IMG/VR virus record: IMGVR_UViG_3300006145_000007
Location: 40,400-104,399 of that record
Reading direction: 5' to 3' (one strand)
DNA: 64,000 nucleotides
DNA from: a virus
Taxonomy: Duplodnaviria; Heunggongvirae; Uroviricota; Caudoviricetes
Shown: positions 243 through 40,567 of the stretch, in pieces
Position numbering within the stretch: position 1 is the first letter of the stretch
How the letters are laid out: each line of letters starts with the position of its first letter
Made by a program: the position numbers and the translations under genes
Notes under the pieces: generated by a model
The model's input: the letters and a program-made list of their open reading frames with translations, nothing else
Told to the model about the DNA's origin: nothing
Database searches by the model: none

Positions 243-647
243 ATGAGCACAACACCGAACTATGGCCTCTATGTGACAGACGATGTGAAGGAGAAGGTCA
301 AGGAACTGCTGGAAAAGATGAGCAACACGACTGACTCCAACATGGTCAAGATCGATACGGCTCTCGGTGAGAAGGCCGACCACAGTTCTGACGTGACTCT
401 GACGCTGGTGTCTTCTGGTTGGTCAGGCGTGTCTGCTCCGTACACATATGAACTGAGTGTGGCTGGACTGAAAGCAAATCAAAACGGGCACATCGAGGTG
501 GCGCACAGCGCCACATTTGAACAGCGTCAGATGGCACGGGAAGCAATCCTATGCGTCACTGGACAGTCTGATGGCAAGATCATCATCTCTGCGGATGGTG
601 AGATGCCTGAACTGGACATCCCGGTCACCATCGTCATGCTGGACTAA
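243..647 (+). CDS. small hypothetical protein, tandem paralog of the upstream partial ORF (ends ..ELDIPVTIVMLD)
   Basis: 134-aa ORF with AGGAGG-like RBS at 229-235; paralogy to the preceding ORF; directly upstream of the tail fibre gene. Confidence 0.5.
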   Translation: MSTTPNYGLYVTDDVKEKVKELLEKMSNTTDSNMVKIDTALGEKADHSSDVTLTLVSSGWSGVSAPYTYELSVAGLKANQNGHIEVAHSATFEQRQMAREAILCVTGQSDGKIIISADGEMPELDIPVTIVMLD

Positions 648-670
648 TTTGAGATAAAGGAGATATCAAT

Positions 671-2935
671 ATGCCTATTCTTGGAAATTTCCCCGCTGGT
701 GGCGGTGGAGGCGGCACAGGCGGACTGGCATTGGCGGCGGTGACTAATATCGCCACCGTAACCGCGCACGAGAAAGTGTATGTCAGTTGGACTGACCCGA
801 ACGATCTGGTAGTGGCAGGCTCTACTCTGGCCGCGTGGGGAGGCACCCTGCTGGTGCGTAAGGCCGGCAGCGCTCCCGTGAGCCGCAGGGACGGCACGGT
901 TGTTCTTGACAGCAAGACACGCAACCAGTACAGCACTACCTACTTCTGTGATTCCGGTCTGACTGACGGCGTGACGTACTACTACAAGTTCTTCCCCTAC
1001 ACTACAAGCAGCACGTACACAGACAGCACGGACGATGAGTTCACCGCGACTCCTGCCGCTGTCGCCCCAGGTAATGTGTCCGGCATGAGCGCAGTCGCTG
1101 CCGGTAACGGGAAGATCACTGTGCAGTGGGGTGACCCAGCCGCCACTGTTGTGACGGACGGTATCACCGTGTCCACCTGGGCAAGCACGCAGGTCGTGTA
1201 TAAGGCCGGGAGCTATCCGACTGACCCGTCAGACGGCACACTGGCACTGAACAGCACCACACGCAACCAGTATGCCACCAACGGCTTTACCATTACCGGG
1301 CTTACGAACGGTACCACCTACTACATCGCCTTCTTCCCGACATCTACCGACGGCGCCGTGAACACCGATACAGCGAACCGCGTGGCCGGTGTTCCGAACC
1401 GGCTCGTCATCAACGATATCCCCGCGCAGAGCGGGGCTCTGACATACAATAAGTCTCCGCAGAACCCAGTGTGGGACAGCGCATATAACCCCGCCATCAT
1501 GACACTGGGCGGCGAGACTGTCGGAACCAACGCGAAGACATACGTGGCTACGTTCACCCCGGATGACGACCATGTATTCGCCGGCGAGACAGCACCGAAG
1601 GCCAAGAATGTATCGTGGGTAATCGGCAAAGCAACCGGTACACTGACGCTCACACCAGCTTCTCTGGTTCTGGACAAGACCACGACAAGCGCAACCTTCG
1701 CCATCTCCGGGGACTTCGATGGCAGCTACACTGTCACGTCGATGGATACCAGCATTGCAACCGTGGCTCTGGTGAGCGGTAAGACATACCGTGTCAGCAG
1801 TGTGAACAGCACGACCGGCACCGCTTCTATCAAGGTGAGCTGCTCGGGCGGCAGCAACTATACCGCCCCCGCCGACAAGTCTGTGAGTGTGACAGCGAAG
1901 TTCGTTACCATCTATGGCGTGAGCTGGGATGGTTCGAGTACCACGAAGTGGTCTCGTACAGATGCATCAGCCAGCTTCACAGATCCTGTGCCTGCTGTTA
2001 GCAATGGGAACGGCAGTTCCCCGTTCGACAGCCTGCAGCCATGGGCCGGAATGGTCAAGGATACTTCTGACAGCGCTGCCGGCGTTCTGGTGAAGATTCC
2101 GAAGTTCTGGTACAAATGGACAAAGAGCGGCAATACGTTGAAGCTCCAGATTGCAGACGGTCAGGTGGACGGGTTCAATGTTTCTCCCGCGCACGCCAAC
2201 AGGGGCGATGGCAAGGGTGAGCGCGACTTCGTTTACGTTGGGCGGTATCACTGCGCGAGTGGGTATAAGTCCACCACAGGCGCCGCACAGCAGGTAAATA
2301 TTACACGGTCAACAGCGCGTTCCAGTATTCACAATTTGGGTGCAACCATTTGGCAGTTCGACTACGCTATGCGCGTGACGATTCAGATGCTCTATCTGGT
2401 CGAGTTCGCCGATTGGAACTCTCAGGCAAAGATCGGCTACGGCTGCTCTGCCGGTGGCTCCAAGGAGAACAATGGCAAGACCGATGCTATGCAGTATCAC
2501 ACTGGTACTACTGCGGCAAACCGGACAACCTATGGCTACACGCAGTACCGCAACATCGAAGGTCTGTGGGACAACGTTTACGACTGGATGGATGGTTGTT
2601 ACTACAACGGTAACGGCATGAACATCATCATGAATCCCGCCAATTTCTCTGACTCTTCTGGCGGGACTTTGATCGGTAAGCCTTCCAGCGGTTGGCCTTC
2701 TGCTATTGCTGTGGCTACCGCAAGTGGTCTGGAGTGGGTGATCTACCCCACTGCGGCAAGCGGTTCCGAAAGCACATACGTCGCGGATGACTGGTACTAT
2801 AACGCTTCCTACCCGTGCCTGTTCTGTGGGGGTGACTACGGCCAGTACCAGAGCCACGGGTTGTTCTACGTGTACTACAACGGCGCCAGCAGCACGTACG
2901 CGTACATCGGCTGCCGCCTCCAAAAACTCCCCTAA
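671..2935 (+). CDS. tail fibre / receptor-binding protein, DGR target: Gly-rich N-terminus, two FN3-like repeats, Ig-like segment, FGE/DUF1566-like C-type-lectin fold C-terminus carrying the variable region
   Basis: RBS AAGGAG at 657-662; repeated motifs ..TRNQYSTTYFCDSGLTDGVTYYYKFFPYT.. and ..TRNQYATNGFTITGLTNGTTYYIAFFPTS.. (FN3-like); C-terminus ..DDWYYNASYPCLFCGGDYGQYQSHGLFYVYYNGASSTYAYIGCRL is matched by a downstream template repeat. Confidence 0.85.
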   Translation: MPILGNFPAGGGGGGTGGLALAAVTNIATVTAHEKVYVSWTDPNDLVVAGSTLAAWGGTLLVRKAGSAPVSRRDGTVVLDSKTRNQYSTTYFCDSGLTDGVTYYYKFFPYTTSSTYTDSTDDEFTATPAAVAPGNVSGMSAVAAGNGKITVQWGDPAATVVTDGITVSTWASTQVVYKAGSYPTDPSDGTLALNSTTRNQYATNGFTITGLTNGTTYYIAFFPTSTDGAVNTDTANRVAGVPNRLVINDIPAQSGALTYNKSPQNPVWDSAYNPAIMTLGGETVGTNAKTYVATFTPDDDHVFAGETAPKAKNVSWVIGKATGTLTLTPASLVLDKTTTSATFAISGDFDGSYTVTSMDTSIATVALVSGKTYRVSSVNSTTGTASIKVSCSGGSNYTAPADKSVSVTAKFVTIYGVSWDGSSTTKWSRTDASASFTDPVPAVSNGNGSSPFDSLQPWAGMVKDTSDSAAGVLVKIPKFWYKWTKSGNTLKLQIADGQVDGFNVSPAHANRGDGKGERDFVYVGRYHCASGYKSTTGAAQQVNITRSTARSSIHNLGATIWQFDYAMRVTIQMLYLVEFADWNSQAKIGYGCSAGGSKENNGKTDAMQYHTGTTAANRTTYGYTQYRNIEGLWDNVYDWMDGCYYNGNGMNIIMNPANFSDSSGGTLIGKPSSGWPSAIAVATASGLEWVIYPTAASGSESTYVADDWYYNASYPCLFCGGDYGQYQSHGLFYVYYNGASSTYAYIGCRLQKLP
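2779..2921 (+). repeat. DGR variable region (VR) at the 3' end of the tail fibre gene
   Basis: 143-bp near-identity to 3274-3416; 17 substitutions, 16 of them where the other copy has A; variable codons are AAC in the partner copy. Confidence 0.85.
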
Positions 2936-2946
2936 AGGAGGGGCGT

Positions 2947-2968
2947 GGGGAGGGTCGCAACCCTCCCC
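2947..2968 (+). promoter_or_regulatory. GC-rich hairpin (9-bp stem GGGGAGGGT/ACCCTCCCC, 4-nt loop CGCA) 26 nt downstream of VR; DGR homing hairpin/cruciform candidate
   Basis: Perfect inverted repeat read directly; position and size match hairpins reported 3' of VRs in DGRs. Confidence 0.55.
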
Positions 2969-3056
2969 ATCATGCAGCCTAACGAACAATTAAATGGCGG
3001 TAATCGCCATAAGCAACCATGACTTCCTATGTAGACGAAGACACCATATGCTCACA

Positions 3057-3083
3057 GGGGGGGGGGGGGGGGAAAGGGGGGGG
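3057..3083. repeat. homopolymer tract G16-AAA-G8 in the VR-TR spacer (with C9 at 3116-3124)
   Basis: Read directly from sequence; potential G-quadruplex or slipped-strand tract, or a sequencing/assembly artefact. Confidence 0.9.
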
Positions 3084-3273
3084 CACCAAATTGGCCCGTT
3101 CGGCGGGACACGCAACCCCCCCCCATGAGAGGCGGCGTCTTTGGACACGCTACACCCCTCCATGTGAGGCGGTGTCTTTTTGCATCTACACACAATTCAA
3201 TCGCATAAACGGCATGTTTTATACATGCCACGGGATTGCCTACGCAGCAGTCGCTGGTTCTTTTAATTGGTGC

Positions 3274-3416
3274 CGTCGCGGATAACTGGAACTATAACGC
3301 TTCCAACCCGTGCCTGCACTGTGGGGGTAACTACAACCAGAACCAGAACCACGGGTTGTTCTACGTGAACTACAACAACGCCAGCAACACGAACGCGAAC
3401 ATCGGCTGCCGCATCC
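3274..3416 (+). repeat. DGR template repeat (TR), adenine-rich (AAC codons) copy of VR
   Basis: Homologous to 2779-2921; carries A at nearly all positions that differ in VR; lies between target gene and RT as in canonical DGRs; the 69-aa ORF 3236-3445 is just the TR read in frame. Confidence 0.85.
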
Positions 3417-3655
3417 TTGTTTTCGCCAGACCTCACCAGAGGTAACGGGCGAGTGCTTGGTTAGCACAATTTCGGTAGAACGGGCTCCTCACCCTTTCTA
3501 TAAGGGCTGTCGTGCGTATATCGCACGGCACCCTTGGCGCGGGCAATCGCGTGCCCCTTGGCAAAGATTAACCGATAGGACATGGGTTAGTACCTCCTGT
3601 GAAAGCGGGACGTGGGAAAGCTCATGAGGTTACAAGGAGGATATTGTAACTCCTT
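3417..3655 (+). ncRNA. TR-RT spacer, probable structured 3' part of the DGR template RNA (priming region)
   Basis: Several local palindromes (CGTGCGTATATCGCACG, GGCGCGGGCAATCGCGTGCC); no ORF; position equivalent to the Sp region of the BPP-1 DGR RNA. Confidence 0.35.
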
Positions 3656-4771
3656 ATGAAACGTACAGCACATCTATACGAAGAACTCATTTCCCACGAC
3701 AACCTGATGCTCGCACTAATTGAGGTAAACGCGAGCCACAGGTGGCTCCCTAAGCACAGGCCAAACAAAATTGTTGCATGGGTCGAGCAGGATATGGAAG
3801 CCCGTGTGAATGAGTTGAGAAAGATCATCGAACAGATCGTATACCACAAGAGACAGCTATCCAAACCAAAGCAGAAGCAGCGTTACGATAAGAGCGCAGG
3901 CAAGTGGCGCATTATCAACGAGCCGAAGCTGTGGCCCGACCAGTATATCCATCACGCACTCGTGCAGGTGCTGCAGCCTACCATGATGCGTGGGATGGAC
4001 AGGCATTGCTGCGGAAGTATCAGATCGCGCGGTATCCACTACGGCAAGAAGAAAATCGAGAAGTGGATGGATACGGATGCGCGCGGAACGAAGTATTGCG
4101 AGGAACTCGACATACATCATTTCTACGACAGTATCGACCCGAAGTACATTATGGCTCGGCTCAGATGCCTTATCAAGGATTGGCGCGTGTTGAAAATCTG
4201 CGAGGAGATCCTGCGTTACGGCGTGCTGATTGGTCTTTACACATCCCAGTGGTTTGCGAATACACTCCTGCAGCCACTCGACCAACTCATTCGAGACAGC
4301 GGATTCTGTACTCACTATCTCAGATATATGGATAACTTTACCATATTCGGGAGCAACAAGAGGAAACTCCACAAGCTGAGAAAGCTAATTGAAGAATGGC
4401 TTGCAGAGGTCAATCTGTCGTTGAAGGAGAACTGGCAGGTGTTCCCGACTAAGAGCCGTATGCCATGCGCGCTTGGATACAGATTCGGTAGAGGCTATAC
4501 CTTACTTAAGAAAAGGAACCTGTTCCGGTTGAAGCGGAAGCTCAACGAGTATTACAGGCGCCGGCGGAAGCACAGGAAGATCTCTGCAAAAATGGCAACA
4601 GGTCTGATCTCAAGGCTTGGTCAACTCAAGCATTGCAGCAATAAGAATGTCTATGAAAAGATCTATCACGGCAAGGTTCAAAGAGAACTGAAGCAAGTGA
4701 TTCGAAATGATATGCGAAAGGAGCGATTAACGTGGAGTATGTATTTGGAACAAACAGCTATAGCGGCGTAG
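3656..4771 (+). CDS. DGR reverse transcriptase
   Basis: RBS AAGGAGG at 3636-3642; DGR-RT hallmark motif GLYTSQWFANTLLQPLD (cf. Brt SLTSQLFANVYGG); motif A ..IHHFYDSIDP..; motif C reads LRYMDNFTIFG (YMDN instead of YMDD). Confidence 0.9.
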   Translation: MKRTAHLYEELISHDNLMLALIEVNASHRWLPKHRPNKIVAWVEQDMEARVNELRKIIEQIVYHKRQLSKPKQKQRYDKSAGKWRIINEPKLWPDQYIHHALVQVLQPTMMRGMDRHCCGSIRSRGIHYGKKKIEKWMDTDARGTKYCEELDIHHFYDSIDPKYIMARLRCLIKDWRVLKICEEILRYGVLIGLYTSQWFANTLLQPLDQLIRDSGFCTHYLRYMDNFTIFGSNKRKLHKLRKLIEEWLAEVNLSLKENWQVFPTKSRMPCALGYRFGRGYTLLKKRNLFRLKRKLNEYYRRRRKHRKISAKMATGLISRLGQLKHCSNKNVYEKIYHGKVQRELKQVIRNDMRKERLTWSMYLEQTAIAA

Positions 4772-5016
4772 AGACTCTGCGTACAAAGGGGAGCGAGCAC
4801 ACAAATTTCGATGGGTTCGTTGAGACGGTGCAGGAGTTCGATGACAGCACCATCACAGATACCTTCCATGTTGTCAGCAAGACAAAGTCCGATGATGACG
4901 CAGAAGGTAACTGCTATGACTGGTACATCATTGACAAACACAACCGTGTCATCGACAAGACCAAGCGCCTGAAGGCGAACATCGACGTGCTTGCCGCGAC
5001 AATTCTGGAGGGGTAA
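4732..5016 (+). CDS. hypothetical acidic protein
   Basis: 94-aa ORF with GTG start overlapping the RT 3' end; no recognisable domain. Confidence 0.35.
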   Translation: MEYVFGTNSYSGVETLRTKGSEHTNFDGFVETVQEFDDSTITDTFHVVSKTKSDDDAEGNCYDWYIIDKHNRVIDKTKRLKANIDVLAATILEG

Positions 5017-5018
5017 CA

Positions 5019-5609
5019 ATGACAATGAAGATGGACAAGAATGATGTGGCGCGCCTGTATGAGAATCGTATGATCTCTGCCGTCGGCGTGCTGAACGCGA
5101 TCCGCAGCAAGTGGATCACCACCGAGGATGCGGTTGAAATCCTTGGGTCAGACAATGCACTCAGCGTCATCAGATCCGCGAAGCTCCAGGAAATCTCAGA
5201 GGCGTGCAACAATACAATCGTTGCCGGCATCGACGTGGTGATCGGCGACCGGACTGATCACTTCAACCTCGCTCTGGAGGATCAGAGCAACATCAATAAC
5301 TTGTTCCGCGTCGTGGAGCTGGGCGGTACTGAGTACCCATACCAGGCAGACGACGGGACATGTACCGTGTATAGCAAGCAGGAAATCGTTCAGATCTATA
5401 TCGCCGCCCAGACTCACATCACGGTCAACACCGCGTACCACAATGCGCTCAAGGCGTATCTGCTGTCTCTGGAGGACACCGATGTGATCGGCGCAATCGA
5501 GTATGGTATGGAGCTTCCTGCGCCATACGCCGAGGAGTTGGCTACCAAGCTGGGTGTCGCCGAGAATCAGATGCAGATGATCGTGGCGAAGCTGAGCGAG
5601 GTGGGATAA
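5019..5609 (+). CDS. hypothetical protein
   Basis: 196-aa ORF, coding-like composition, tight spacing with flanking ORFs. Confidence 0.5.
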   Translation: MTMKMDKNDVARLYENRMISAVGVLNAIRSKWITTEDAVEILGSDNALSVIRSAKLQEISEACNNTIVAGIDVVIGDRTDHFNLALEDQSNINNLFRVVELGGTEYPYQADDGTCTVYSKQEIVQIYIAAQTHITVNTAYHNALKAYLLSLEDTDVIGAIEYGMELPAPYAEELATKLGVAENQMQMIVAKLSEVG

Positions 5610-5759
5610 CTATGCACACCAAACTGGTGGAGATACTTTCGGATATCTGCATCAGGCAGGCGTCTGTCATCAAAGACCAAGCATTTGCTCTCGCTGCACT
5701 GGGAGCGGAAGTACGAGAGGACGAGGCGGCTGCTTTGCGCGACCTCCTCCGTTCTCTGA

Positions 5760-6230
5760 TTGGAGATTGGAGTGATGATGATGGAAAAGAGTAAGCTGAG
5801 CAAGTGGGTGCTTTCCGGGCTTCTGTGGGTGTTCGGCGGCACCCTCTACTTCTATATGGAGGTTATGTGGAAGACGCTGAACAGCAGACCAGAGTCAATC
5901 AGTTGGACGATGCTGACACTGGCGATGATCCTGTGCATCCCTCTTGAACGATTCGGGAGTGAACTGCCATGGAACTGCCCACTGCTTTTGCAGGCGTCCA
6001 TCTGTACTGTAGCAATCACAGCAACCGAGTTTATCGCCGGGTGCATCCTGAACCTCTGGCTCGGCCTGGGGATTTGGGACTACTCAAACGTCCCGTTCAA
6101 TATCCTTGGGCAAGTGTGCTTGGCGTTCTCCGGCGTATGGTTTGCGCTGTCGATCTTTGCAATCATTCTGTTTGACTGGATACGGTACATCGTGGAGGGC
6201 GGAGAGAAACCGCATTATCGCATTGTATGA
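5760..6230 (+). CDS. integral membrane protein (3-4 predicted TM helices)
   Basis: Hydrophobic segments LSGLLWVFGGTLYFYMEVMW, TMLTLAMILCIPL, VCLAFSGVWFALSIFAIILF. Confidence 0.5.
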   Translation: MEIGVMMMEKSKLSKWVLSGLLWVFGGTLYFYMEVMWKTLNSRPESISWTMLTLAMILCIPLERFGSELPWNCPLLLQASICTVAITATEFIAGCILNLWLGLGIWDYSNVPFNILGQVCLAFSGVWFALSIFAIILFDWIRYIVEGGEKPHYRIV

Positions 6231-6241
6231 AAGGGAAATAA

Positions 6242-6574
6242 ATGCCAAAATTCAACATCAATAAACTTCGGTCTGCTGGCCTGAGATACCTTGCCGCAGA
6301 CACAGACGGTCAGATGTGGGCGTATGAAGCAATGCCCGTACGAGAAGATGGGCATTGGAGGCTGTCAGACAAACATATGTGCCCATCTGATTACGGTGAA
6401 GCATACCTGGAACATTGGAGAAAGGTAATGCGATGGAGGTGGAAGGGCAGGGAGTTCTGTCTTCCAGTCTATGATACGCCCGTCAAGCTGACATCCGATG
6501 ACGACCCATATGACATTGTTCAACATGGGCTCGTGGATGGGAAAGACCTTAAGGCTTGGCCGGAGTTTATATAG
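6242..6574 (+). CDS. hypothetical protein
   Basis: 110-aa ORF preceded by GAAAGGGAAAT. Confidence 0.45.
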   Translation: MPKFNINKLRSAGLRYLAADTDGQMWAYEAMPVREDGHWRLSDKHMCPSDYGEAYLEHWRKVMRWRWKGREFCLPVYDTPVKLTSDDDPYDIVQHGLVDGKDLKAWPEFI

Positions 6575-6641
6575 AAGTCGTATTTTATTCAGCCTCGGCG
6601 GTGTGTCCTGCCGGGGCTGTTCTTGAAAGGAGGGGGACCTG

Positions 6642-7664
6642 ATGGGAAGAAAGACGACTCGGAGTATGGCTGCTACGCCTGAGAAGCTGGCAGAGGTTAA
6701 CCCAGAGAACATGCGGCTTAAGAAAGAATTTCTTGGCTACCTGAAATCTCTGAGCCGATCCAGCGAGACAATCAAGGTCTATGACTCCGACCTCAACATT
6801 TTCTTCTGCTGGGCGGTGGACAATGCCGCTAACAAGTTCTTCGTGGATGTGAGCAAGAGAGACATCGTGGCGTTCCAGAACTACATGCTGGAAGCCGGCT
6901 GCTCCGCTGCAAGGGTGCGGCACCTGAAAGCCGCGCTGTCATCTCTGTCCAACTATATCGAGAACATTCTCGATGACGAGTTCCCGAACTTCCGGCCCAT
7001 CATCCGTAAGATCGAGAACCCAGCCAATGAGGCGGTGCGTGAGAAAACCGTACTCACCAAAGAGCAGGTTCAGTCCTGCCTGGATCATCTGGTCGAGCAT
7101 AAAAAATTCAAACAGGCGTGCTTCTTTGCTTTGGCTGCCTACTCTGGCAGACGCAAGGCGGAGCTTGCACGCTTCAAGGTAACGTACTTCGACGACGCCA
7201 ATATTATTTGCGGGTCGCTCTATAAGACGCCTGAGAAAATCAGGACAAAGGGTCATGGGAGAAACGGCAAGATGCTGACCTGCTATACGCTGTCCAAGCC
7301 GTTCAAGCCCTATTTCGATCTGTGGATGGAGGAAAGGAAGCGCCTCGGTATCGAGAGCGAATGGCTGTTCCCAGATGTGCATGACACTACAAAGCCTATC
7401 GGGGTATCAACAATGAACAGCTACGCAAACAGCTTCTCCCGGATCATGGGCGTTCCATTCTACATGCACGCCCTCCGACACTTCATGACATCTGAACTGG
7501 CGAGAGCTAACCTGCCTGACTCCGCAATCCAGATGCTGATCGGATGGGATAGCGCAGATATGGTTGGCGTGTATAAGGACATTGACGCTGACGAGGAGTT
7601 CAGCAAGTATTTCAAAGACGGTGAGATCGTAGCGCAGAAGGCTACGAGTATTGAAGACCTATAG
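6642..7664 (+). CDS. tyrosine site-specific recombinase, XerC/XerD-like (second recombinase in window)
   Basis: N-terminal SAM-like core-binding segment (..LKKEFLGYLKSLSRSSETIKVYDSDLNIFFCW..), catalytic R (..YSGRRKAE..), HALRH box and C-terminal ..MVGVYKD.. tyrosine. Confidence 0.8.
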   Translation: MGRKTTRSMAATPEKLAEVNPENMRLKKEFLGYLKSLSRSSETIKVYDSDLNIFFCWAVDNAANKFFVDVSKRDIVAFQNYMLEAGCSAARVRHLKAALSSLSNYIENILDDEFPNFRPIIRKIENPANEAVREKTVLTKEQVQSCLDHLVEHKKFKQACFFALAAYSGRRKAELARFKVTYFDDANIICGSLYKTPEKIRTKGHGRNGKMLTCYTLSKPFKPYFDLWMEERKRLGIESEWLFPDVHDTTKPIGVSTMNSYANSFSRIMGVPFYMHALRHFMTSELARANLPDSAIQMLIGWDSADMVGVYKDIDADEEFSKYFKDGEIVAQKATSIEDL

Positions 7665-7676
7665 GGAGGTGGGTTC

Positions 7677-9110
7677 ATGGCTATGAGTTTTACACCGAGA
7701 CTGACCCGCCCAGAAGCGGGTAACAAATACTACATCACAAAGGCTGCCGGCGGATACTCGTCCGCTATCAAAGGTAGCCCAACCGACGCACACTGTGATG
7801 TCCTGTCGAACTGCGTAGGGTACGCATACGGCAGATTCAATGAAATCGCCGGAGAGGGTGCCTGTAAGTATCTGAGCCCAACCAATGCGGAGAACTTCAT
7901 CCAGTATGCGGGTGGGCTTGAAGTCGGTCAGACACCCAGGCTCGGCGCATGTATGGTCTGGCAGAAAGGCGCGACGCTGAAAGGATCTGACGGCGCAGGA
8001 CATGTCGCTATCGTGGAGCAGATCATCAGCCCCACTGAAATCATCACATCCGAGAGCGGATGGAAAGCCAAGAAACCATTCTGGACTCAGAACAGGAAGA
8101 AGGGCAACGGGAACTGGGGACAAGGCAGCGCTTACAAATTCCTTGGCTTCATCTACAACCCCGCTGTCAATGTTGTATCGACAGAGAAAGGAGATGGTGT
8201 GACGATGAAGTACACTTCTGCGAACCCACCCATGCAATGCTTCATGCGGCAGAGTACCTGGTATCGCGAAGCAGGCAAGACTACCATCAAGGGCGTACTG
8301 TGGCATTCAACAGGGGCCAACAACAAGACCGTGAAGCGCTACGTCCAGCCTGACGACAATGCTCCAGACCGGGAGAAGATACTTGAGATCATCGGTGTCA
8401 ACAAGAACGGCAATGATTGGAACCATCAGAAGCTGAAGAAGGGTGTCCACGCTTTCATCGGTACACTCGCTAATGGGGATGTGGCGGCTGTTCATGTCGG
8501 CCCGTGGGATAAGAAAGCATGGGGTTGTGGTTCAGGGAGCAAGGGTTCCTGCAATAACGGCTGGATTCAGTTTGAAATCTGTGAGGACAATCTGAATGAC
8601 CCTGTGTACTTCGAGAAAGTGTACCGTGAGGCGGTGGAGCTGACAGCTTATCTGTGCAAGCTCTACAATCTCAACCCACATGGGACTGTTACATATTGCG
8701 GTGTCAAGGTTCCTGTCATTCTGTGTCATCAGGACAGCTACCAGCTTGGGCTTGGTTCCCCCCACTCCGATGTGCTTCACTGGTTCCCGAAGTATGGGAA
8801 GAGTATGCAGACTGTTCGTGACGATGTTGCCGCATTGCTTGCGGGATCGAATGACAATACAGGGGAGGATGAAGATATGGATAATGCACGTTTCAAAGAA
8901 CTTTTCAATAATATGCGTTCTGAATGGCAGGACAATGACTGCGGGTCTTGGAGCCAGGAAGCCCGTGACTGGGCGACAAGCACCGGCCTGATTGCCGGTG
9001 GCGGGAAGATGCCGGATGGCACTCCCAACTATATGTGGGCTGACATGCTGACCCGTGAGCAGGCTGCTGCTCTGTTCTACCGGTTCGCTCAGATGATGGG
9101 TAAGGTGTAA
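7677..9110 (+). CDS. endolysin: N-terminal CHAP peptidase, central amidase_2/PGRP-like domain, C-terminal SLH-like cell-wall binding domain
   Basis: CHAP Cys/His context (..DAHCDVLSNCVGYAYGRF..GHVAIVEQI..); ..GVLWHSTGANNKTVKRYV.. and ..WIQFEICED.. amidase-like; C-terminal ..WSQEARDWATSTGLIAGGGKMPDGTPNYMWADMLTREQAAALFYRF.. SLH-like. Confidence 0.8.
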   Translation: MAMSFTPRLTRPEAGNKYYITKAAGGYSSAIKGSPTDAHCDVLSNCVGYAYGRFNEIAGEGACKYLSPTNAENFIQYAGGLEVGQTPRLGACMVWQKGATLKGSDGAGHVAIVEQIISPTEIITSESGWKAKKPFWTQNRKKGNGNWGQGSAYKFLGFIYNPAVNVVSTEKGDGVTMKYTSANPPMQCFMRQSTWYREAGKTTIKGVLWHSTGANNKTVKRYVQPDDNAPDREKILEIIGVNKNGNDWNHQKLKKGVHAFIGTLANGDVAAVHVGPWDKKAWGCGSGSKGSCNNGWIQFEICEDNLNDPVYFEKVYREAVELTAYLCKLYNLNPHGTVTYCGVKVPVILCHQDSYQLGLGSPHSDVLHWFPKYGKSMQTVRDDVAALLAGSNDNTGEDEDMDNARFKELFNNMRSEWQDNDCGSWSQEARDWATSTGLIAGGGKMPDGTPNYMWADMLTREQAAALFYRFAQMMGKV

Positions 9111-9114
9111 TACC

Positions 9115-9471
9115 ATGACCATCAAGATTGAGCGCGGGAGGAAGAAGCCCAGGCGGCGTAAGAAGAAGCGTCCAAGCATCGGGTTCACCAACCGGCTCGC
9201 TCTCTACCTCATGATGTTCCTGTTGGCGGGTCTTGTTGGTGGGTTCATCCTCGCTTGGAGGAGTATTGAGTTCCAGTATATGGGCGCTCTCGCGTGCTTC
9301 ACCGTGGTGTTTACCCCGGTGGGTACGGCAATCGGTATCGTGCTGAACAGCATCGTACATAAGAGCGACCATGAGAACACCGGCGCTGACGGTGAGGGAA
9401 TCAAGTTCGCCGCTGCAAAGGCGACAGGATTCGTACAGGATGATGTGGTAGAGGACAGCCCTGCAATATAA
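9115..9471 (+). CDS. membrane protein with basic N-terminus and two TM helices (lysis accessory / class II holin-like)
   Basis: MTIKIERGRKKPRRRKKKRP followed by LALYLMMFLLAGLVGGFILAW and ALACFTVVFTPVGTAIGIVL. Confidence 0.45.
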   Translation: MTIKIERGRKKPRRRKKKRPSIGFTNRLALYLMMFLLAGLVGGFILAWRSIEFQYMGALACFTVVFTPVGTAIGIVLNSIVHKSDHENTGADGEGIKFAAAKATGFVQDDVVEDSPAI

Positions 9472-9488
9472 CTTAGGAGGAAACGAAT

Positions 9489-9845
9489 ATGGAACACTAT
9501 ATGCAGCTTATTGTTTCTATCCTCGCAGGTCTGGCGACCGCTATTCCTCTGGCTATCAAGCTGGTGGAGTATGTCCGTAAGGCCGTGAAGGAAAAGAATT
9601 GGCCAGAGGTTGTAAGCCTTGTTATCGAACTGATGTCAGAGGTTGAGGGTAAGATGGAAGTCGGGGCGGATAAGAAAACGTACGTCCTGGCGGTGTTGAA
9701 AGCCTCTGCTGATACTATCGACTATGACCTGGATGAAAACGATTATAAGAAAATCGGGGATCTTATCGACAGTATGTGCGACATGAGTAAAGTTCTGAAT
9801 GCGAACAAGTCTGCTGCCGCTAACGGAAAGAAGGAGACAATGTAA
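9489..9845 (+). CDS. holin, LL-H / phi-LC3-like family
   Basis: RBS AGGAGG at 9474-9479; single N-terminal TM (LIVSILAGLATAIPLAI) then charged helical tail typical of LL-H holins; follows the endolysin. Confidence 0.6.
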   Translation: MEHYMQLIVSILAGLATAIPLAIKLVEYVRKAVKEKNWPEVVSLVIELMSEVEGKMEVGADKKTYVLAVLKASADTIDYDLDENDYKKIGDLIDSMCDMSKVLNANKSAAANGKKETM

Positions 9846-9864
9846 CTTTCAGGAGGTATGCAAC

Positions 9865-10317
9865 ATGAATCTCGGAGAAATCGCCGGGTGGAGTGGGGGT
9901 GCATTGCTCTTGCTCCTCACGTTTGTCCAGATTGCACCAATCAAGATTAACCCGTGGTCTGCTATCGTGCAGAGCATCGGGAAGGCACTCAATGGGGATG
10001 TGCTAAAGAAGCTGGATGTTCTTGAGGAAGGCCAGTTAGAAACCAGGAAGCGTTTGGATAAACATATCCGGATCGACGATGATCGCAATGCAGATACACA
10101 TCGTTCCCGGATCTTACATTTCAACACGGAACTGCTCCGTGGTAATAAGCACACGCGGGAAGACTTTATCGAAGCTCTTGCGGAGATTGACTTTTACGAA
10201 CGATACTGTCGGGAACATCCAGACTATGAGAACAACCGCGCAGTTCTCGCCATCGAGAACATAGAACGTGTGTATAAGAAACTTATGGAGAACGGCGGGT
10301 TCTTGCAAGAGACCTAA
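9865..10317 (+). CDS. membrane-anchored protein (N-terminal TM), putative lysis regulator
   Basis: RBS AGGAGG at 9851-9856 and ATG 9865; TM GGALLLLLTFVQIAPI; ORF-track start at 9799 is probably too early. Confidence 0.45.
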   Translation: MNLGEIAGWSGGALLLLLTFVQIAPIKINPWSAIVQSIGKALNGDVLKKLDVLEEGQLETRKRLDKHIRIDDDRNADTHRSRILHFNTELLRGNKHTREDFIEALAEIDFYERYCREHPDYENNRAVLAIENIERVYKKLMENGGFLQET

Positions 10318-40279: not shown

Positions 40280-40567
40280 CTAATCTTTTGTATAAATCCC
40301 GCCAGCAATATCAAGGTCGCCAACCGCCCGTATACCGAAAAGCCTAATAAATTTTTCGCCCTCCCACCAGTCATACAGAAACTCGATGTCGTCAAAATTT
40401 ATAGGGCTTGCAATCTCCTTATGCAAGTCAAATGTATTGCCGTCATATGAAGTTCCTATCGAAACAATAACCGTATCTGTGATATCATTGCGCTTCCAGT
40501 ATCTTTGAATGTACTCTCCTATTGCGTCATAACCAGATTGACCTTCTTTTAGTTTAATCTCAATCAT
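40280..40567 (-). CDS. hypothetical protein
   Basis: 95-aa ORF. Confidence 0.4.
   Translation of the reverse strand: MIEIKLKEGQSGYDAIGEYIQRYWKRNDITDTVIVSIGTSYDGNTFDLHKEIASPINFDDIEFLYDWWEGEKFIRLFGIRAVGDLDIAGGIYTKD

Follow-up and report, generated by a model that had tools for sequence, protein, structure and literature searches.

This analysis describes a diversity-generating retroelement (DGR) of a tailed phage (Caudoviricetes) in which motif C of the reverse transcriptase (RT), the catalytic YMDD box of related enzymes, reads YMDN. The element lies in a stretch of 64,000 nt, hereafter the window, that corresponds to positions 40,400 to 104,399 of the IMG/VR record IMGVR_UViG_3300006145_000007. 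On the basis of sequence comparisons it is considered likely (probability of roughly 0.85) that the cassette is a working DGR devoid of the protein Avd, located in a phage or prophage tail-fibre module, and that the Asn is an old, selected and functional state of a whole clade of RTs in which the second shell of the active site has been remodeled. In this reading YxDN is a known kind of system with a motif C variant that defines the clade, has been kept by selection and goes together with a change of Lys to Glu in motif A.

The two aspartates of the YxDD box are generally held to be invariant and essential in RTs, and both were 100% conserved in a survey of 155 DGR RTs (Schillinger et al., PMC3521204); a clade without the second Asp contradicts this textbook-level assumption. 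The YxDN clade comprises hundreds of distinct sequences and thousands of database members, and many gut-phage DGRs would be misassigned by annotation pipelines that require YxDD or treat DN as a sign of inactivity. The finding does not reveal a new kind of element; it offers a clean experiment, as the coupled Lys-to-Glu change beside the motif A Asp is a natural experiment on the role of the second Asp and on its replacement, and it suggests variants for DGR-based mutagenesis tools. The catalytic box is not discussed by Wu et al. 2018 (PMC5758913), a 2026 paper on the reconstitution of the Bordetella phage enzyme (bRT) includes the SMAA double mutant only and no single D216N (PMC12875486), and full-text searches of open-access papers found no mention of YMDN or YxDN in the context of RTs.

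The Asn of motif C in homologous RTs

The RT of the window has as its closest solved relative by sequence bRT (PDB 8ub7; E=6e-17). The gene and the motifs referred to throughout the text are the following.

3656-4771, plus strand: DGR reverse transcriptase, 371 aa (open reading frame; Pfam RVT_1, E=1e-13; PHROG reverse transcriptase, E=7e-69)
4103-4111, plus strand: motif A core Glu150-Leu151-Asp152, with Asp152 catalytic and Glu150 where DD-type DGR RTs have Lys
4229-4249, plus strand: DGR-specific [LIV]GxxxSQ motif, here IGLYTSQ, residues 192-198
4325-4342, plus strand: motif C core Tyr224-Met225-Asp226-Asn227-Phe228-Thr229, with Asn227 at the site of the second Asp
4469-4471, plus strand: Ala272 of the xLGY "primer-grip" motif, Phe in DD-type DGR RTs, covarying with Asn227

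The substitution was first described in an earlier note on this DNA, which read motif C correctly as LRYMDNFTIFG, with the codons gat aac, and placed both the stretch (4321-4353) and the Asn codon (4336-4338) 2 nt too far downstream; the stretch occupies 4319-4351, with Asp226 encoded by gat at 4331-4333 and Asn227 by aac at 4334-4336. As also stated there, a single A-to-G transition (at 4334, giving GAC) restores Asp, and DGR RTs such as Brt have YMDD: the site of the second Asp is DD in all the reference DGR RTs (Brt YMDD, Hankyphage YCDD, Arawn YMDD, FP_Epona YMDD, LBR48 NIDD). Three explanations were put forward in that note, namely recent inactivation (a frozen, domesticated DGR), a tolerated variant and a sequencing error.

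A word-indexed protein search gave 1055 matches at E<=1e-10, and motif C was read in the best 120 of them, all of which (120/120, 100% to 55% identity) share Y[MIV]DN, the outcome of a comparison with close homologs that had already been proposed. An exhaustive HMMER search of representatives of clusters at 50% identity, which is free of retrieval bias, gave 22 DN and 1 DD at identities of at least 45% to the window RT, 4 DN and 4 DD at 40-45%, and 10 DN and 94 DD below 40%. Loci from IMG/VR and GTDB, fetched with peptide patterns including YMDNFTIF, show the same division, with all RTs of at least 45% identity being DN and all those of 37% or less DD. Genome matches of the clade are in gut assemblies of Clostridia/Oscillospiraceae, including the cultured isolate Bacterium D16-76.

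Asn is encoded at the site of codon 227 in 91 independently assembled loci and is the residue found in 213 distinct RTs; of the unique DN RT genes, 49 use AAC for this residue and 30 use AAT. The dN/dS of the RT gene is 0.03-0.12 (eight pairs), a range indicative of strong purifying selection. Since Asn is conserved, is specified by two codons and occurs in genes of low dN/dS, it is concluded to be old and maintained by selection in an intact gene, and it is ancestral to a clade of RTs that have diverged to about 45% identity. Two YMDN homologs (P0103 and P0113, 569 aa) are annotated with an extra carbohydrate-binding domain (PF02839); these may be fusions or read-through gene calls.

A sequencing or assembly error at codon 227 might be suspected from a low-quality-looking stretch located 1.2 kb upstream (a poly-G run and a degenerate 37-nt duplication, see below). 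The probability of such an error is close to nil, as the RT gene of another locus (L007) is identical to that of the window and Asn occurs, with both codons, in more than 200 distinct sequences from independent assemblies.

Turnover of the variable repeat

The cassette has the order target gene with the variable repeat (VR), hairpin, spacer with a poly-G run, template repeat (TR), RT-18 RNA and RT. Its components upstream of the RT are listed here.

671-2935, plus strand: DGR target gene, a phage tail protein of 754 aa with the VR at its C-terminus (PHROG phrog_5302 "tail protein", E=5e-37)
2779-2921, plus strand: VR, 143 nt, 88% identical to the TR
2946-2969, plus strand: GC-rich hairpin with a 10-bp stem and a 4-nt loop (inverted repeat, 100% complementary), 11 nt past the stop codon of the target gene
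3274-3416, plus strand: TR, 143 nt with 41 adenines
3552-3639, plus strand: RT-18 RNA motif (Rfam RF03021), full length, 77.4 bits versus a gathering score of 41.3, E=6e-13

The VR ends 14 nt from the end of the target-gene stop codon, and the target protein, whose variable domain would in a DGR be expected to have a C-type lectin or Ig fold, has no match in Pfam and NCBIfam. The VR/TR pattern on which the earlier note had relied holds, with 16 of the 17 mismatches in the window at TR adenines. It extends to the clade: of the 65 DN loci with 1.5 kb or more of sequence before the RT, 59 have a TR/VR pair, and when the 67 DN loci with a pair are pooled, TR adenines account for 1029 of 1079 mismatches.

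Near-identical phages with identical TRs differ from one another at 15-26 VR bases, about 95% of which correspond to TR adenines. The TR of the window is 100% identical to those of L007, L008, L087 and L088, and 20-26 of the 143 VR positions separate any two of the window, L008 and L087, 19-25 of these at TR adenines (23-26 differences when the window is compared with the other two). The window and L087 differ at 26 of the 143 VR positions and at just 2 of the 3060 bases that extend from just upstream of the TR through the RT gene and beyond; in the preceding 3.1 kb there are 44 differences, 26 of them within the VR. In L046 and L047, with RT genes 99.9% identical and the 600 nt upstream of the VR 100% identical, there are 21 VR differences, all at TR adenines, and the same pattern occurs in the pairs L037/L041, L069/L104, L071/L073 and L043/L044. 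Altogether, 17 near-identical pairs have 350 VR differences, 331 of them at TR adenines. In addition, the TR of L011 differs from that of the window at 7 non-adenine positions and the VR of L011 has the same variants; because this VR carries the variants of its own TR, homing continued after TRs had diverged within the clade, long after the D-to-N change.

YxDN enzymes are evidently still active in adenine mutagenesis and VR replacement, as judged from these patterns. A recent inactivating D-to-N point mutation, which would leave a frozen, domesticated DGR with a VR/TR pair recording past activity only, draws on the single transition that separates AAC from GAC and on the fact that the DD pair is treated as essential in other RTs, the standard dead control of bRT being YMDD>SMAA (PMC12875486). 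It is nevertheless extremely improbable and, as proposed in the earlier note, is refuted by an Asn kept in relatives down to about 45% identity, by the low dN/dS of the RT gene and by the turnover of VRs between genomes with identical TRs and flanks 99.9% identical. The proposal of a tolerated variant, by contrast, is supported by homologous YMDN RTs with diversifying VRs, their activity being deduced from sequence; active homologs of this kind had been listed in the earlier note as a refuting observation.

Some further features of these loci deserve mention. An RT 99.7% identical to that of the window (P0001; L087 5001-6116 and L088 2053-3168) has Lys for Gln198 (IGLYTSK), and the VR of its locus is heavily diversified despite this change (22 adenine mismatches). 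TR position 44 (window 3317; VR 2822) is a C just 5' of an A, and VRs made from the same TR vary at this position: L008 has C, L087 has A, and both the window and L011 have T, which may reflect recurrent non-adenine mutagenesis beside an adenine. Finally, L087 and L088 are identical in RT, TR and VR, whereas the body of the target gene just upstream (600 nt) is only 84% identical, a contrast that suggests mosaic recombination in the tail-protein gene.

The frequency of mutagenesis also differs between the two types of loci (L001-L141). TR adenines are substituted at a mean of 0.43 in DN and 0.61 in DD loci (Mann-Whitney p=1e-9), and A-to-C changes are rarer in DN loci (4% versus 12%). An effect of the Asn on adenine substitution was considered and dropped, as the nearest DD relatives with similar TRs (L079, L081, L107 and Arawn) are at 0.38-0.46, within the DN range; given this overlap, lineage or target type is the probable source of the difference.

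Covarying residues and a proposed active site

The clade-wide extent of the change and its coupling to other substitutions of the active site had been overlooked in the earlier note. The new observation is that Asn227 covaries with position 150, which precedes the motif A Asp by two residues. The main DN clade was compared with DD sequences column by column, and a few columns have a state that is nearly fixed in DN yet almost absent from DD. Three of these columns are at or near the active site; their counts are from 376 distinct RTs (213 DN and 163 DD).

Position 150 (bRT Lys136), two before the motif A Asp: in DN RTs Glu 169, Gln 28, Cys 7, Ser 4, Thr 4, Ala 1 and never Lys; in DD RTs Lys 146/163, Gln 11 and never Glu
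Position 229 (bRT Val218), two after Asn227: in DN RTs Thr 204/213; in DD RTs Val 123, Ile 17
Position 272 (bRT Phe260), xLGY primer grip: in DN RTs Ala 205/213; in DD RTs Phe 124 and Tyr 13 of 163

Asp152 and Asp226 are invariant (376/376 RTs), and the Gln of the SQ motif is kept in 205 of the 213 DN RTs.

In a neighbor-joining tree, to be taken as a rough guide, most DN sequences form one clade. Its sister is P0126 (loci L196 and L197), an RT with motif C YMDDMN, Tyr at position 150 and 22 of 24 TR/VR mismatches at adenines, which may be an evolutionary intermediate. Elsewhere in the tree are a second DN group (P0143, P0198, P0227, P0234, P0237, P0245) and four singletons. DN sequences outside the main clade are nearer to DD sequences than to that clade; the singleton lineages P0189 and P0204, for example, stand at 41% identity to DD sequences and at 35-36% to any DN sequence. 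In the scattered DN sequences position 150 is occupied by Glu, Gln or Ser, and in none by Lys. Mismatches between TR and VR are mostly at adenines in the lineages of P0143, P0227 and P0237 (13/14, 8/9 and 21/22, respectively); P0189 and P0204 were left out of this comparison as their contigs are too short upstream. A scan of viral contigs with P0143 recovered only relatives of 37% identity or less, and the new loci with a readable motif C were all DD. As the DN lineages are scattered, the D-to-N change probably arose more than once, each time without Lys150.

In the cryo-EM structure of bRT, Mg2+ is 2.2 A from one and 2.3 A from the other of two residues, D138 in motif A and D215, the first Asp of motif C; D216 is listed as catalytic, yet does not figure among the named ligands of this Mg2+ (preprint 10.1101/2023.10.23.563531). 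The counterparts of the two ligands in the window RT are Asp152 and Asp226. An AlphaFold2 model obtained from 66 clade members (mean pLDDT 85) superposes on bRT with a TM-score of 0.67-0.76 and has Glu150 and Asp152 on strand 147-153, the motif C hairpin formed by strands 220-224 and 227-232, and Asn227 and Thr229 on the second of these. In the standard RT palm the motif A strand pairs with the second strand of the motif C hairpin. By motif alignment Glu150, Thr229 and Ala272 would correspond to the NNRTI-pocket residues Val108, Tyr188 and Trp229 of HIV-1 RT, which pack together directly beneath Asp185/Asp186; by analogy, this suggests that the covarying positions of DGR RTs form one cluster.

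It could be argued that the Asn is neutral, the second Asp being dispensable in DGR RTs, and that Glu, Thr and Ala are unrelated, hitch-hiking markers of the clade. Shared ancestry accounts for much of the correlation, as most DN sequences are in one clade, and the binding of Mg2+ in bRT by D138 and D215, not D216, agrees with a dispensable residue. This explanation is judged unlikely, since Lys is found in 0/213 DN sequences, even in the scattered lineages whose DD neighbors have Lys or Gln, and Glu in 0/163 DD sequences; the DD sister P0126 is also devoid of Lys (Tyr), which suggests an ordered path, and the polymorphism of D and N expected inside clades is not seen.

In the mechanism proposed for a functional Asn, catalysis would be carried by the never-varying Asp of motif A (Asp152) and the equally constant first Asp of motif C (Asp226). 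The third carboxylate would not simply have been lost; instead, the second shell under the catalytic hairpin would have been remodeled together with the D-to-N change, with Glu taking the place of Lys at position 150, Thr that of Val at position 229 and Ala that of Phe at position 272 of the primer grip. The Lys/Asp pair of DD-type enzymes would be replaced by a Glu/Asn pair, backed by Thr and by a smaller primer-grip residue, an arrangement that would retain a carboxylate close to metal A, with the chemistry left to Asp152 and Asp226. The YxDN RT would copy the TR RNA to cDNA with adenine-specific errors, and this cDNA would replace the VR. What the sequences show is conservation, selection, covariation and a VR turnover that is still going on; that residues 150, 227, 229 and 272 are in contact and have a role in metal binding is deduced, and the rate, metal preference or fidelity of the enzyme may be affected.

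A further explanation is that the YxDN protein is catalytically dead and has been kept for RNA binding or targeting, the cDNA being made in trans by a DD-type RT. The enzymology of the YxDN clade was not found in the literature searched and the window covers the right-hand end of a prophage only, both of which leave room for such an arrangement. However, there is only one RT, and likewise a single VR, within the 64 kb; the YxDN RT directly follows the TR and RT-18 in 59/65 loci, as in DD relatives; invariant Asp152 and Asp226 and an SQ Gln so widely kept are unexpected for a dead polymerase; and the compensatory-looking changes cluster at the active site. A dead protein is consequently regarded as very unlikely.

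It is also conceivable, as a tentative extension of the functional reading, that YxDN together with Glu, Thr and Ala constitutes an alternative, repeatedly evolved RT active site in which a carboxylate has moved from motif C to motif A and catalytic behavior has been altered, whether in metal preference, in rate, or in how often or how adenines are misread. The lower adenine substitution of DN loci (43% versus 61%) and their fewer A-to-C changes are a possible hint of altered behavior, confounded by lineage.

Several points weigh against an old and functional Asn. The open-access literature searched contains no assay of a YxDN RT, whether biochemical or in vivo. The sets of loci, retrieved in part with YMDNFTIF, are enriched in DN and allow no estimate of prevalence; the covariation counts ignore phylogeny, and the number of D-to-N origins rests on a neighbor-joining tree and on nearest-neighbor identities. 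Lastly, the VR differences between near-identical genomes could in part be due to recombination of pre-existing VR alleles, although the shuffled alleles themselves would have to have arisen through adenine mutagenesis from this TR.

The cassette and its relation to known systems

Apart from its YMDN box in place of YxDD, the window has the hallmarks of a DGR, that is, an RT with the SQ motif, an adenine-biased TR/VR pair, a VR at the 3' end of the target gene followed by a GC-rich hairpin, and VR turnover. As these defining features of DGRs are present, the element is treated as a DGR with a variant motif C. In the BPP-1 DGR a hairpin/cruciform at the corresponding site is needed for target recognition (PMC3240598), and by analogy the hairpin of the window may have a similar function.

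The region 3400-3660 is strongly structured (fold z=-3.9), and RT-18, which ends 16 nt from the RT start codon, presumably belongs to the DGR RNA that undergoes reverse transcription or priming. RT-18 was found in 12/12 YxDN loci sampled and in the DD relatives LBR48, L076, L081 and L107; other RNA families occur with Brt, Hankyphage and FP_Epona (Phage_DGR, RT-3 and RT-4, respectively). Since RT-18 is common to DN loci and their nearest DD relatives, the DN clade is nested in a wider RT-18, Avd-less lineage, from which it differs mainly at the active site.

Pfam and PHROG scans of the nine or ten plus-strand open reading frames (at least 60 aa, positions 243-10317) revealed no members of the Avd, HRDC or MSL families. 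Avd is present in about 74% of DGRs, and the Avd-less Architecture A accounts for 29% of DGRs (Wu et al. 2018, PMC5758913); the cassette of the window is consistent with this architecture.

Two other observations concern the surroundings of the cassette. The spacer at 3056-3179 has a homopolymer of G16-17 in the window (G14 in L007, G9 in L008, G8 in L087), and the next 50 nt or so depart from the near-identical loci chiefly through A/T-to-G/C changes. The spacer also contains a degenerate tandem duplication of 37 nt (3106-3142 and 3143-3179, 86% identical), which is absent from L007, L008 and L087. The spacer has the look of a hypervariable tract or of an artefact of assembly or sequencing. 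Downstream, a tyrosine recombinase (6642-7664; Phage_integrase, E=2e-14) stands between a membrane protein (5760-6230) and an endolysin with CHAP and Amidase_2 domains (7677-9110), and thus looks to be inside an apparent lysis module, directly after the DGR.

Among known systems, the BPP-1 DGR shares with the window an RT of the SQ-motif clade (27% RT identity, TM 0.67-0.76 to 8ub7), a C-terminal VR in a tail protein, adenine mismatches between TR and VR, a GC-rich hairpin downstream of the VR and a structured RNA in the interval from TR to RT. It differs in the active site, where Brt has YMDD (D215, D216), Lys136, Val218 and Phe260 and the window RT has YMDN, Glu150, Thr229 and Ala272, as well as in having Avd and the Phage_DGR RNA (RF03022), whereas the window has RT-18 (RF03021) and no Avd was found in it.

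The Architecture A DGRs of Bacillota phages (PMC5758913; e.g., Lactobacillus phage LBR48 and Butyrivibrio phage Arawn) have the same order of target, TR and RT and no accessory gene. These phages include the nearest non-DN relatives of the window RT (33-37% identity), and LBR48 and the uncultured relatives L076, L081 and L107 share RT-18 with the window. Unlike the window RT, they keep DD (YMDD, NIDD, NMDD) and the Lys two before the motif A Asp.

More distant is the case of the L polymerases of Mononegavirales, with GDN as motif C, which are active right-hand polymerases with an Asn aligned to the second Asp (motif alignments of Poch et al.). They are RNA-dependent RNA polymerases without detectable sequence relationship to the window RT, and we know of no coupled motif A change in them. 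HIV-1 RT, unlike the window RT, keeps both aspartates of YMDD.

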